A DNA stretch of 64,000 nucleotides, taken from NCBI RefSeq assembly GCF_016903815.1, contig NZ_CP069973.1; one strand, written 5' to 3'. The notes beneath the pieces were generated by a model. That model did no database searches. It saw nothing but the letters and a program-made list of their open reading frames with translations, and was not told where the DNA came from. Origin of the DNA: Escherichia coli. Lineage in GTDB: Bacteria; Pseudomonadota; Gammaproteobacteria; Enterobacterales; Enterobacteriaceae. The number at the start of each line of letters is the position of its first letter. Within the stretch, counting starts at the first letter, position 1. This document shows, one piece after another, positions 5,720 to 12,045 of the stretch. Both the position numbers and the translations under genes were made by a program.

Positions 5720-6862
5720 TTAATCCATTAACGGAAACCAGCCAGTTCCTTTCGATGCCTGAATTTGATCCCATAGTTTATCCGGAATGGTTAATTCAGG
5801 AACAAGTTGTGGATTAAGGGTTGTTTGAATTTCATGGCTTCTACCTGATTCAGCTAAAGTCACCCATTCTGGATTTATCACCAGCCCTTTACCGATCGCA
5901 ACAAGTGGCAGGCCAGCGGAAATTGCTTCTTGAGCCTGAGACGGTGTGCGTATTTTACCTGCAGCGATTACCGGCACTCTGCCTGCAATATGATTTAAAA
6001 TCAATTCAATAGTTCGGGGGCCATTTGGCGACTCAACAGGGTAGCTATCGTTAATACTGACCAGCGAGGTATGTATATACGAAATACCGGATGAAATGAG
6101 TCGATCAAGGAGTTTATAAGTATCCTCTATCCGCAGCCCCCCTGTTACAGATTCTTCAGGAGATATTCTGTAACCGATAGCAAAGCGCTTTGTCGCATAT
6201 TCATAGACTACATTTTTTACTTCCTGTAATACGGCCAGCGGGAAGCGCATACGTCCTTCAAGATCTCCTCCCCATCGGTCATTACGCTGGTTAAATAGAG
6301 GGGAGAAGAAATTCTGCAGAAGGAATCCGTGCGCACCATGAAGTTCAACGCCATCAAAACCTGCTTTAATCGCCCTTTTTGTGACATCTCCGAATGCTCT
6401 AATGGTTTCCTGAATTTCGTTTTCAGTCATTTCCCTGCTTTGTACCACTCTCTTCATAAAGTCACCAGATTTTACGCTTGATGCGCTGGCACTAATAACA
6501 TCGTTATTTGGCACAAGCTCCGGGATGGCTTTATTACCAGCGTGGAAAATCTGCAAAATAGCCGGAGCACCGCCACTTTTGGCTGCAGCTGCTAACTTTT
6601 CAAGGCTGTTAATGAAACGGTCGTCATACGCGGCAAATTCATGAGTAAACCCAATGCCGCTTGGCGTGACATAGGTGCATCCTGTTATTACTAAACCAAC
6701 ATTTTGTGAGCGACGTTTATAAAATTCGAGTTCTTGCTCAGAGATGGTTCCATCAGGATTAGCTGACCAGGTTGTCATAGGAGCCATAACGATACGATTA
6801 CGTAGCTTTATTTTTTCTGTCAGCATAAAAGGAGAAAACAATGATGGGTGTTTATTTGTCAT
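5720..6862 (-). CDS. Old-yellow-enzyme family NADH:flavin oxidoreductase
   Basis: 380-aa ORF; N-terminal LFSPFMLTEKIKLRNRIVMAPMTT motif typical of OYE/NemA-like FMN reductases; GAGGT 6 nt upstream of the ATG. Confidence 0.8.
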   Translation of the reverse strand: MTNKHPSLFSPFMLTEKIKLRNRIVMAPMTTWSANPDGTISEQELEFYKRRSQNVGLVITGCTYVTPSGIGFTHEFAAYDDRFINSLEKLAAAAKSGGAPAILQIFHAGNKAIPELVPNNDVISASASSVKSGDFMKRVVQSREMTENEIQETIRAFGDVTKRAIKAGFDGVELHGAHGFLLQNFFSPLFNQRNDRWGGDLEGRMRFPLAVLQEVKNVVYEYATKRFAIGYRISPEESVTGGLRIEDTYKLLDRLISSGISYIHTSLVSINDSYPVESPNGPRTIELILNHIAGRVPVIAAGKIRTPSQAQEAISAGLPLVAIGKGLVINPEWVTLAESGRSHEIQTTLNPQLVPELTIPDKLWDQIQASKGTGWFPLMD

Positions 6863-7035
6863 AACAATACCTCAAATGTTTATCTGATTTTAATGCGTAT
6901 AATCTTAATAAGTTGAGTTGCTACTTTTTGATGCTTTTTTTCCTTTAATAGAATTCTTTTTGAGTAATTTTATTATTGTTGTGTAGTCAATAAAGGATAA
7001 ATGTCAGGGAGATAAGGAATCTCCCTGTAAGATTA

Positions 7036-7956
7036 TTACAAATGTGTTTTATAAAAAGGAATTAATTTTTCGAGTGCCTGTTTCACAGGTTCTGGCTTAT
7101 CATACAGGTCGTAATGTGAATAACCTTCAACCACGACCAGCTCTTTATGTTTTGAGGCAGCGCGGCCAATAATTTCGCAGCCGTCACGGTAGGCACCAAA
7201 TGCGCCCACTCTATCGCCCACCACAACCATTATTGGTTGAGTTAACAGGACTTCTGCAAGATGAAATGCATCCCAACCCACGGCAACAGTCTGATGTGAG
7301 AATAGCGAACGATTTACCCCATTAGGTGCACAGCCTCGTGGCGAACGATAATATTCTGTGGCTTCAAAAAGGTCTATTTCTGTTAATCCCGCTTCAAGAG
7401 CTGCATCCGGAGAAGAGGGGAGTAAATCATCTACGCGAAGTTTTGCGCCGTTAGCTTCGTCTGTTCTTTGTTGCGCCATCGCTTCGAGTGCTCCGATAGG
7501 ATTAAACGCTGTAAATCCCTCACGCATAAGACGCCCGTAGTTTGCACCCGTGACAGTACCAATAGCTTTAATTCGACGTTCTGTCATTGCGGCATTAATG
7601 GCATATCCACCTCCACCACAAATACCCAGTACACCAATACGCCCGGCATCAACGTAAGGTAAGGTGGTAAGGTAATCAACGACAATGCTGAAGTCTTTTA
7701 CTCGCATTGTTGGATCTTCCAGATAACGCGGTTCTCCACCGCTGCTTCCCTGAAAACTGGCATCAAAAGCAATGACGATAAAGCCAGCTTTTGCCAGGGC
7801 GGCACCATACACACTACCCGATGTCTGTTCTTTGCAGCTTCCAATTGGATGGGCGCTGATAATGGCAGGATACTTTTTTTCACTATTAAAATCGTCAGGG
7901 AAATAGATATCAGCAGCTATATCCCAGTAAGTATGTTTTATCGAAACAGTTTTCAT
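7036..7956 (-). CDS. Alpha/beta hydrolase (dienelactone-hydrolase-like)
   Basis: 306-aa ORF; GICGGGGYA nucleophile-elbow-like motif; same strand as and upstream of the OYE gene. Confidence 0.7.
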   Translation of the reverse strand: MKTVSIKHTYWDIAADIYFPDDFNSEKKYPAIISAHPIGSCKEQTSGSVYGAALAKAGFIVIAFDASFQGSSGGEPRYLEDPTMRVKDFSIVVDYLTTLPYVDAGRIGVLGICGGGGYAINAAMTERRIKAIGTVTGANYGRLMREGFTAFNPIGALEAMAQQRTDEANGAKLRVDDLLPSSPDAALEAGLTEIDLFEATEYYRSPRGCAPNGVNRSLFSHQTVAVGWDAFHLAEVLLTQPIMVVVGDRVGAFGAYRDGCEIIGRAASKHKELVVVEGYSHYDLYDKPEPVKQALEKLIPFYKTHL

Positions 7957-8112
7957 TTCAAGCTCCGGGGATTTGCCTAAACAGATTTAAATATCATTTC
8001 TATTATCCGCAACTGGCATTCGTGTTCATATCGAGAACGGCGTAATAGTATGACTTGTATTGGTTATCATCAATGGTCTAATATCTATCACAGTGTTAAG
8101 TTAAGGTTTACA

Positions 8113-9039
8113 ATGATGAAAATAGAGCCTTCAATTTTGCCTTCTCTTGCCTGGTTTGCGCTTATTGTTCGTGCCGGCAGTTTTTCCAGAGCCGCTTCTG
8201 AAATGGGTATTACGCGGGCCGCATTGTCCCAGAATTTAAAATCTCTTGAGGAACGTCTTAACACCAAGCTGATATACCGTACGACCCGCAATATGTCGCT
8301 TACTGAGGAAGGACAGCGTCTGTATGAAGTGCTGGTGTCGGCTTTGGGGCAAATTGATGATGCTTTGAAAGATGTTGGTGATACCCAACTTGAACCTACA
8401 GGCCTGTTGAGAATAAATTCCTCCCGTGTTGCAGCACGGATGCTTGTTGAGCCTCATATTGGCGAGTTTCTTACTCGTTACCCCAAAACAAAGATAGAAC
8501 TCATTATGGATGACGGTTTATCTAACATTATTGCGGACGGCTGTGATGTGGGCATACGTCTTGAGCAAGGACTGGATGAGCATATGACTGCCGTTCCTGT
8601 TTCTCCGCTTATTAAACTGGTTACTGTGGCATCGCCAGATTATTTAAAAGAACACGGTATTCCTGAAACGCCTCAGGAACTGAGTAACCATAATTGCCTT
8701 CGGTTGCGGCATAAAAGTAGCGGTGCACTCTCTGCATGGGAGTTTTCTAATGTTGTGGGGGGTAATGAAGAGTTCGAAATAGAGGTTTCAGGTAAGTATA
8801 TTTCTAATGATGACGAAAGCATGATACGAATGGCGCTGAATGGAACGGGTATCATTCAACATCTGGATTTTGCAATCGCTGAACATATCAATGCGGGCAA
8901 GTTACAGCCGATTCTTGAGGATTGGGCCGTTTCATTTCCTGGATTTTATATATATGTTTCATCACGGGTGAGAATGCCCTCTAAAGTTCGTGCTTTTATT
9001 GATTTTATGGTGGAGAAAAGAGTAAAAATAGAAAGTTAA
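8113..9039 (+). CDS. LysR-family transcriptional regulator
   Basis: N-terminal HTH (LAWFALIVRAGSFSRAASEMGITRAALSQNLKSLEERLN); start set at the internal MMKIEP after AAGG; divergent from the hydrolase gene. Confidence 0.8.
   Translation: MMKIEPSILPSLAWFALIVRAGSFSRAASEMGITRAALSQNLKSLEERLNTKLIYRTTRNMSLTEEGQRLYEVLVSALGQIDDALKDVGDTQLEPTGLLRINSSRVAARMLVEPHIGEFLTRYPKTKIELIMDDGLSNIIADGCDVGIRLEQGLDEHMTAVPVSPLIKLVTVASPDYLKEHGIPETPQELSNHNCLRLRHKSSGALSAWEFSNVVGGNEEFEIEVSGKYISNDDESMIRMALNGTGIIQHLDFAIAEHINAGKLQPILEDWAVSFPGFYIYVSSRVRMPSKVRAFIDFMVEKRVKIES

Positions 9040-9121: not shown

Positions 9122-12045
<2,924 letters not shown>

Follow-up and report, generated by a model that had tools for sequence, protein, structure and literature searches.

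A conserved two-box block as the probable LysR operator in the divergent hydrolase/LysR spacer of Escherichia coli, with a nearby GTTC dyad as a probable chance repeat

The window analysed here, a 64-kb stretch of Escherichia coli DNA, carries a divergent pair of genes encoding a YcjY-like hydrolase and a LysR-type regulator (Table 1). The 2.1 kb around an inverted repeat flagged in the spacer between them is 100% identical to many E. coli chromosomes and was found in 2219 of 5426 complete E. coli genomes (~41%), with O157:H7 strains among the carriers of the cassette. RefSeq annotation places the locus in an accessory island between ykgR and fdeC, which is absent as a whole from K-12, and a literature search returned no paper on the hydrolase/LysR locus. 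The original prediction had described the spacer as lying between divergently transcribed hydrolase and LysR genes, and this context is confirmed by the opposite strands of the two genes and by the Pfam domains HTH_1 and LysR_substrate in the regulator. The hydrolase is presumed to be the direct target of the divergent regulator. The gene for an old-yellow-enzyme (OYE) type flavin oxidoreductase, which follows the hydrolase in several orthologous loci too, probably shares the same LysR regulon. Further to the right, the second LysR gene, a local and lineage-specific neighbour, is convergent with two aldo/keto reductase genes.

Table 1. Genes and predicted elements of the locus, in window positions
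Feature	Positions	Strand	Remarks
NADH-dependent flavin oxidoreductase, OYE type	5720-6862	-	Pfam Oxidored_FMN 5.7e-78; downstream of hydrolase
Alpha/beta hydrolase, YcjY-like	7036-7956	-	Pfam alpha/beta-hydrolase families; divergent from LysR gene
Hydrolase/LysR spacer	7957-8112		156 bp, 36% GC; between divergent genes
Hydrolase -10, predicted	8045-8050	-	TACTAT; TAnnnT at fixed offset in 16/16 orthologs
Box 2	8059-8074		ATTG-GTTATCAT-CAAT; perfect dyad (ATTG-N8-CAAT) in enteric clade
Hydrolase -35, predicted	8068-8073	-	TTGATG; 17-bp spacer; inside Box 2
lysR -10, tentative	8079-8084	+	TAATAT; -35 TTGTAT at 8055-8060
AAT block	8080-8082	+	near-invariant, 14/16; AGT and AAA in the other two
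Box 1	8092-8114		AGTGTTAAG-TTAAG-GTTTACAAT; imperfect palindrome; identical internal spacing in 16/16 loci
lysR Shine-Dalgarno, probable	8103-8106	+	AAGG; within variable spacer of Box 1
LysR-type regulator	8113/8116-9039	+	PGAP start 8113; 8116 likelier
Second LysR regulator	9236-10132	+	RefSeq annotation
Two aldo/keto reductases	10163-11152, 11179-12030	-	RefSeq annotation

The LysR protein of 307-308 aa combines an N-terminal wHTH (PF00126 HTH_1, 3.4e-19, 69 bits, cutoff 26.6) with a C-terminal substrate-binding domain (PF03466 LysR_substrate, 2.6e-29, 102.6 bits, cutoff 28), the architecture of a LysR-type regulator. None of the NCBIfam equivalogs was reached, the best hit being YafC NF040888 with 192.6 bits (cutoff 470). 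Among solved structures, CrgA (PDB 3HHG, E = 2.5e-37) is closest in sequence. PGAP starts the gene at ATG 8113 (MMKIEPS). A 1-nt insertion in E. albertii throws the first ATG out of frame and leaves only the second in frame, and other orthologs have a single ATG at this place, which together point to ATG 8116 as the probable true start and suggest a correction of the annotated start codon. Within the protein, the wHTH is far better conserved than the whole (...SFxKAAxEMGvxRAALSQNLKxLE...YRTTRxMSLTEEG), and the recognition helix RAALSQNL is the same in 14 of 16 orthologous loci.

These loci were gathered by a scan of species-representative genomes, by a protein search with contig look-ups, by plasmid tblastn and from E. 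coli variants. The resulting 16 non-redundant loci each have a LysR ortholog (53-99% identity) beside the same cassette and span gamma- and beta-proteobacteria. The Escherichia and enteric loci come from E. albertii, Escherichia sp. E1V33, a Klebsiella variicola IncF plasmid and four metagenomic enteric-like contigs; the distant ones come from Shewanella, Alcanivorax, Vibrio parahaemolyticus, Photobacterium, Chromobacterium, Chitinibacter, Variovorax, Cupriavidus and Burkholderia. Sequences of the enteric clade are not independent of one another, so the 16 loci amount to about 7-8 independent lineages. The LysR gene is divergent from a YcjY-like hydrolase gene in 15 of the 16; in the remaining locus (LysR 73% identity) the gene facing LysR is NmrA-like, with no hydrolase called. 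Downstream of the hydrolase there is often an NmrA-like SDR gene, an OYE gene or both. One 4.4-kb contig labelled 'MAG: Collinsella sp.' (JAIJJM010000245.1), and thus assigned to an actinobacterium, carries a LysR gene whose product shares 99% identity with that of E. coli; it is almost certainly a mis-binned E. coli contig.

The spacers were aligned ungapped on the anchor ACAG (window position 8090), which was first recognised from the E. coli sequence. The high-information columns keep the same offsets in every one of the 16 loci, between neighbours of almost no information, and give the consensus T.aAt.gTAGa......ATTG........AA.....AAT.......ACAGTGtTAAG......TTtACAAT. A conserved block beginning at ACAG contains Box 1, whose best centre of inverted symmetry is 8103. 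In E. coli the core of Box 1 is GTTAA (8095-8099)-N7-TTTAC (8107-8111), symmetric at 9 of 10 positions. The family consensus is AnTGtTAAG-N5-cTTaACAAT, and the ideal form, AnTGTTAAG-N5-CTTAACAnT, corresponds to GTTAA-N7-TTAAC with the canonical T-N11-A pair. Perfect versions occur in Vibrio (GTTAAG-AAATT-CTTAAC) and Photobacterium (TTAAG-N5-CTTAA). At the symmetric T-N11-A pair, 9 of the 16 orthologs, among them E. coli, have T...T, and just 3 have T...A. The end of the Box 1 spacer reads GG or AG in most enteric-clade orthologs.

Two controls against circularity were applied to this alignment: a weight matrix built without Escherichia, and an alignment-free profile recording the best match of each E. 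coli 12-mer, on either strand, anywhere in ten other spacers. With the matrix, 8090-8114 is the unique best site in the 64-kb window on both strands (34.1 vs 15.8 bits; background -30.2 +/- 9.4 bits), and its reverse-strand reading comes fourth, which is what a dyad should give. Elsewhere in the 64 kb no further Box 1 site rose above background, the surroundings of the second LysR gene and of the aldo-keto reductase genes included. The alignment-free profile peaks at 8086-8101 (0.76-0.83), 8103-8115 (0.75-0.76) and 8056-8069 (0.73), the last of these in the region of Box 2. In distant orthologs Box 2 consists of a near-invariant ATTG (13/16) and a weaker AA signal at fixed offsets, its right arm being kept in the enteric clade only. 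Its own matrix ranks 8059-8074 first in the window, narrowly (18.7 vs 16.8).

Two further arrangements were considered. A single large palindrome over 8059-8114 matches at only about half of its positions. Towards the hydrolase end of the spacer, ACAGATTTAA (7981-7990) looks like the left arm of Box 1, ACAGTGTTAA (8090-8099), which lies 109 bp away. As a second half-site, this ACAG-NN-TTAA look-alike has no fixed offset among orthologs, and the Vibrionaceae counterpart coincides with the -10 block; the resemblance is probably a coincidence, with a distal half-site as what it could otherwise be.

Conservation of Box 1 follows that of the regulator in one respect. The helix RANLSQNV occurs only in Cupriavidus and Burkholderia FXe9, and the same two have GTAT(T/C) in place of TAAG as the inner box. 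This co-change points to a cognate relationship between protein and site, and is supportive, not conclusive, because it probably reflects a single evolutionary event. The blocks at 8045-8114 could instead be kept for core promoters, for the 5'-UTR and translation signals of lysR, or for another factor, and would then not mark the LysR operator. TAnnnT and AAT resemble -10 elements, TTTACA/TTGACA in the right arm of Box 1 resembles a -35 hexamer, and in the enteric clade Box 1 adjoins the start codon and contains the Shine-Dalgarno sequence. The most conserved bases of Box 1, ACAGT (8090-8094) and ACAAT (8110-8114), are 20 bp apart, which exceeds the usual contact of one LTTR dimer, so that part of its conservation may come from promoter or early-transcript functions. 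This explanation nevertheless appears unlikely for the block as a whole. A dyad-symmetric block of 25 bp with fixed spacing recurs from gamma- to beta-proteobacteria only in spacers with this LysR ortholog, and two Burkholderia relatives lacking the divergent hydrolase hold just a partial copy. The box co-varies with the recognition helix, no covariation of a Box 1 RNA hairpin was seen and its stems are broken in E. coli and Burkholderia, and TTTACA used as a -35 would place the transcription start within the gene.

The promoters suggested by the conserved blocks fit around the two boxes. The -35 assigned to the hydrolase is kept in the enteric clade, distant orthologs retaining TT alone, and its weakness would be typical of activator-dependent promoters. 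For lysR, TTGTAT-N18-TAATAT (8055-8084) suits the enteric clade, its -35 not being conserved in distant orthologs, and would tentatively start transcription near 8090, with Box 1 at +2 to +24 of the transcript. TACAAT (8109-8114), called as the lysR -10 by a promoter scan, was rejected: it overlaps the start codon, distant orthologs have a Shine-Dalgarno sequence downstream of it, and it is part of Box 1.

The spacer very probably contains a LysR operator. In the reading that we consider likely, 7957-8115 is a canonical bidirectional LTTR control region with its operator at 8059-8114, and the GTTC dyad is only a chance repeat. The promoter positions, the recognition and activation roles of the boxes, the sign of regulation and binding itself are here inferred from the sequence comparison. 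The LysR protein would bind the conserved stretch of ~56 bp, with Box 1 as the high-affinity recognition site (RBS/RS) and Box 2 as a lower-affinity, promoter-proximal activation site that takes in the hydrolase -35. Transcription of the hydrolase(-flavin oxidoreductase) operon would run leftwards from the TACTAT/TTGATG promoter with a start near 8038, placing the centres of Box 1 and Box 2 at about -65 and -29 relative to the start predicted from the conserved -10. When no inducer is present, a bound tetramer or higher oligomer would occlude the -35/-10 and the lysR promoter or early transcribed region, the latter resulting in negative autoregulation. A small-molecule inducer would cause the promoter-proximal dimer to move and bring in RNA polymerase.

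The original prediction had proposed a different element, the inverted repeat GTTC-ATATCGA-GAAC, as the candidate LysR operator. The repeat, GTTCATATCGAGAAC, is indeed present in the spacer, with arms at 8024-8027 and 8035-8038, and is formally of the T-N11-A type (T8025...A8037) inside 7957-8112. Its location had been given as about 8006-8020, and the repeat lies 18 bases further right, at 8024-8038. The expectation of a LysR operator in this spacer holds up very probably, and the assignment of that role to the dyad does not: it occurs at chance frequency, lacks conservation, lies in the left half of the spacer and has half-sites out of register with the conserved box.

The frequency of the dyad was assessed in the window and in the spacer. 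The window of 64 kb has two copies of GTTC-N7-GAAC where 0.93 are expected, and at least two arose in 25 of 100 shuffles. The spacer contains 6 perfect dyads with 4-bp arms (spacers 3-11) against 5.97 +/- 2.89 in 2000 dinucleotide shuffles, and at least one dyad with a spacer of 7 appeared in 46% of 2000 dinucleotide-preserving shuffles of the 156-bp sequence. T-N11-A pairs number 8 against 14.9 +/- 2.7 expected, which makes the T-N11-A criterion uninformative in this spacer.

Conservation at the dyad was examined in a MAFFT alignment of the eight closest spacers. In Escherichia sp. E1V33 the columns read GTTC-ATATTGC-GAAC, with changes in the spacer and intact arms. In E. albertii they read GCTT-ATATCGC-GAAC, with a broken arm. 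The Klebsiella variicola plasmid has GGCT-ACGCTGC-GGAG, and metagenomic relatives of 77-84% protein identity, again with broken arms, have GGCT-GCACTGC-GGAT, GGCT-TCGCTTC-AGGT and G-CT-GAATCAA-GAAT. Among the orthologs beyond E. coli and its closest clade, none keeps the dyad. An alignment-free search for GTTC-N7-GAAC in 14 non-E. coli orthologous spacers gave best matches with 2-4 mismatches in 8 positions at scattered offsets. Within Escherichia, 19 of 97 positions vary in the left half of the spacer (7957-8053) versus 1 of 62 in the right half (8054-8115; Fisher p = 4.5e-4), and 5 of the 15 dyad positions are variable, including two arm positions in E. albertii. Alignment-free 12-mer conservation is 0.60-0.68 over the dyad and averages 0.675 across the spacer. 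Every E. coli variant sampled has intact arms, which carries little weight because these samples are 98.7-100% identical. The dyad thus lacks the conservation expected of an LTTR operator whose regulator has the same recognition helix in 14 of 16 loci.

On these data it is very improbable that the adjacent LysR regulator uses the GTTC dyad as its operator or as one of its operators. Its 4-N7-4 format with T8025-N11-A8037 is correct and resembles the ATAC-N7-GTAT of BenM (PMC11495319), it sits in the right spacer with arms intact in the sampled E. coli and in E1V33, and its outer GTT...AAC is common to the family box. The spacing of this outer GTT...AAC is, however, 2 bp short of that in the conserved box, leaving the half-sites out of register. 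The arms are broken in E. albertii, although its LysR is 91% identical with an unchanged recognition helix, and every other ortholog lacks the dyad. If the hydrolase -10 were GATAAT (8007-8002, minus strand), the dyad would be centred near -36, but this hexamer is not conserved even in the enteric clade. Counted from the start predicted by the conserved TAnnnT -10, the dyad would instead occupy about +1 to +15. Its distance from the Box 1 centre, 72 bp, exceeds an LTTR footprint of 50-60 bp.

We give hardly any credence to the view that the dyad is an Escherichia-specific site for another factor, such as the LysR regulator encoded at 9236-10132, or a hairpin at the 5' end of the hydrolase mRNA. 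The second LysR gene is a lineage-specific neighbour, the arms are intact across the sampled E. coli, and the MFE fold of the predicted hydrolase 5' UTR includes a 4-bp hairpin. Against this, the hairpin has only 4 bp with a 7-nt loop, the near identity of the E. coli samples limits what intact arms can say, and no factor has a positive link to the GTTC sequence. The fold of the predicted 5' UTR is no better than that of shuffles (z = 0.56; 142/200 as good), and no Rfam family was found in the dyad/5'-UTR region, where the only match was a sub-threshold snoRNA (E = 0.59). GTTC-N7-GAAC is judged a putative chance inverted repeat in poorly constrained DNA of the predicted hydrolase 5' UTR. The lesson is that a 4-bp T-N11-A dyad in an AT-rich spacer predicts nothing when conservation is lacking.

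The preferred reading, with the operator at 8059-8114, would agree in layout with known LTTR systems. Published LTTRs have a recognition site at about -65, a less symmetric activation site over the -35/-10 and a footprint of 50-60 bp, and autorepression comes from an overlap between the recognition site and the regulator's own promoter (PMC11495319; PMC2724274). The regulator is divergent from its target in BenM/CatM-benA, CbnR-cbnA and DntR (PMC11495319), as it is here. In sliding-dimer LTTRs a high-symmetry dyad stands ~65 bp upstream of the target start, as Box 1 would relative to the start predicted here, and a weaker site covers the -35/-10. Box 2 and Box 1 together extend over ~56 bp, and overlap of the recognition site with the lysR promoter or early transcribed DNA would predict autorepression. 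BenM (ATAC-N7-GTAT) and the ideal Box 1 (GTTAA-N7-TTAAC) share a 4/5-N7-4/5 format with different half-site sequences. Unlike BenM-type systems, Box 1 of E. coli lacks the symmetric T...A, and its conservation extends outward to ACAGT/ACAAT.

CrgA of Neisseria meningitidis offers a second comparison, as an autorepressor that also activates the divergent quinone reductase gene mdaB, a redox/detoxification gene (PMC2724274). It occupies two adjacent T-N11-A sites within a 63-bp footprint (PMC2724274), comparable to the Box 2-Box 1 stretch. The CrgA sites are 30 bp each, 3 bp apart and unlike those here in sequence, and the match of E = 2.5e-37 makes CrgA a distant relative and not an ortholog. 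ACAGT and ACAAT are two helical turns apart and can be taken for either a direct repeat or a dyad. This 20-bp spacing, together with the octameric state of CrgA as the closest solved relative, would allow Box 1 to be read by a non-canonical assembly (two DBD pairs or higher oligomers on one DNA face) and not by a sliding tetramer, an arrangement that we regard as quite improbable.

A paralogous cassette exists in E. coli K-12, where PgrR (YcjZ) is divergent from a YcjY-type hydrolase of 306 aa in the ycjY-ymjDC-mpaA region. There a gene for an NmrA/SDR-like protein comes after the hydrolase, and the downstream gene is mpaA in K-12 versus the OYE flavin oxidoreductase here. The hydrolase of the window is 41% identical to K-12 YcjY, and its LysR protein is 31% identical to PgrR over 292 aa, which is not at the level of orthology. 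The ycjY/ycjZ spacer is among the listed PgrR targets from genomic SELEX (PMC5934670). Box 1 is not present in the K-12 ycjY-pgrR spacer (locus L038, 5855-5991), which holds the direct repeat TGATTAGACC twice, 18 bp apart from start to start, and the palindrome TCATTTAAATGA; these are possible PgrR sites, unrelated to Box 1.

Since the likely LysR site is the conserved block 20-90 bases to the right of the dyad, the hydrolase/LysR spacer is an ordinary, routine LysR control region and matters little beyond annotation. For annotation, the analysis moves the predicted operator of the cassette to 8059-8114 and offers the consensus AnTGTTAAG-N5-CTTAACAAT, which, given an inducer, could seed regulon prediction or biosensor design for this LysR clade. 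The cassette adjoins a Tn3-family transposase and a resolvase on the K. variicola IncFIA/IncFII plasmid, and phage-type integrase genes in Shewanella, Chitinibacter and Variovorax. These neighbours suggest that the LysR/hydrolase(/SDR/OYE) cassette is a horizontally mobile module of the detoxification type.

In most orthologous loci an NmrA-like SDR gene lies between the hydrolase and OYE genes. This gene is missing in E. coli, and tblastn detected no remnant of it in the hydrolase-OYE gap (6863-7035). The gap is 173 bp long and AT-rich, with a GC-rich hairpin, CAGGGAGATAAGGAATCTCCCTG (7005-7027), just past the hydrolase stop. Given this arrangement, the OYE gene may be transcribed from a separate promoter, or the hairpin may work as an attenuator.
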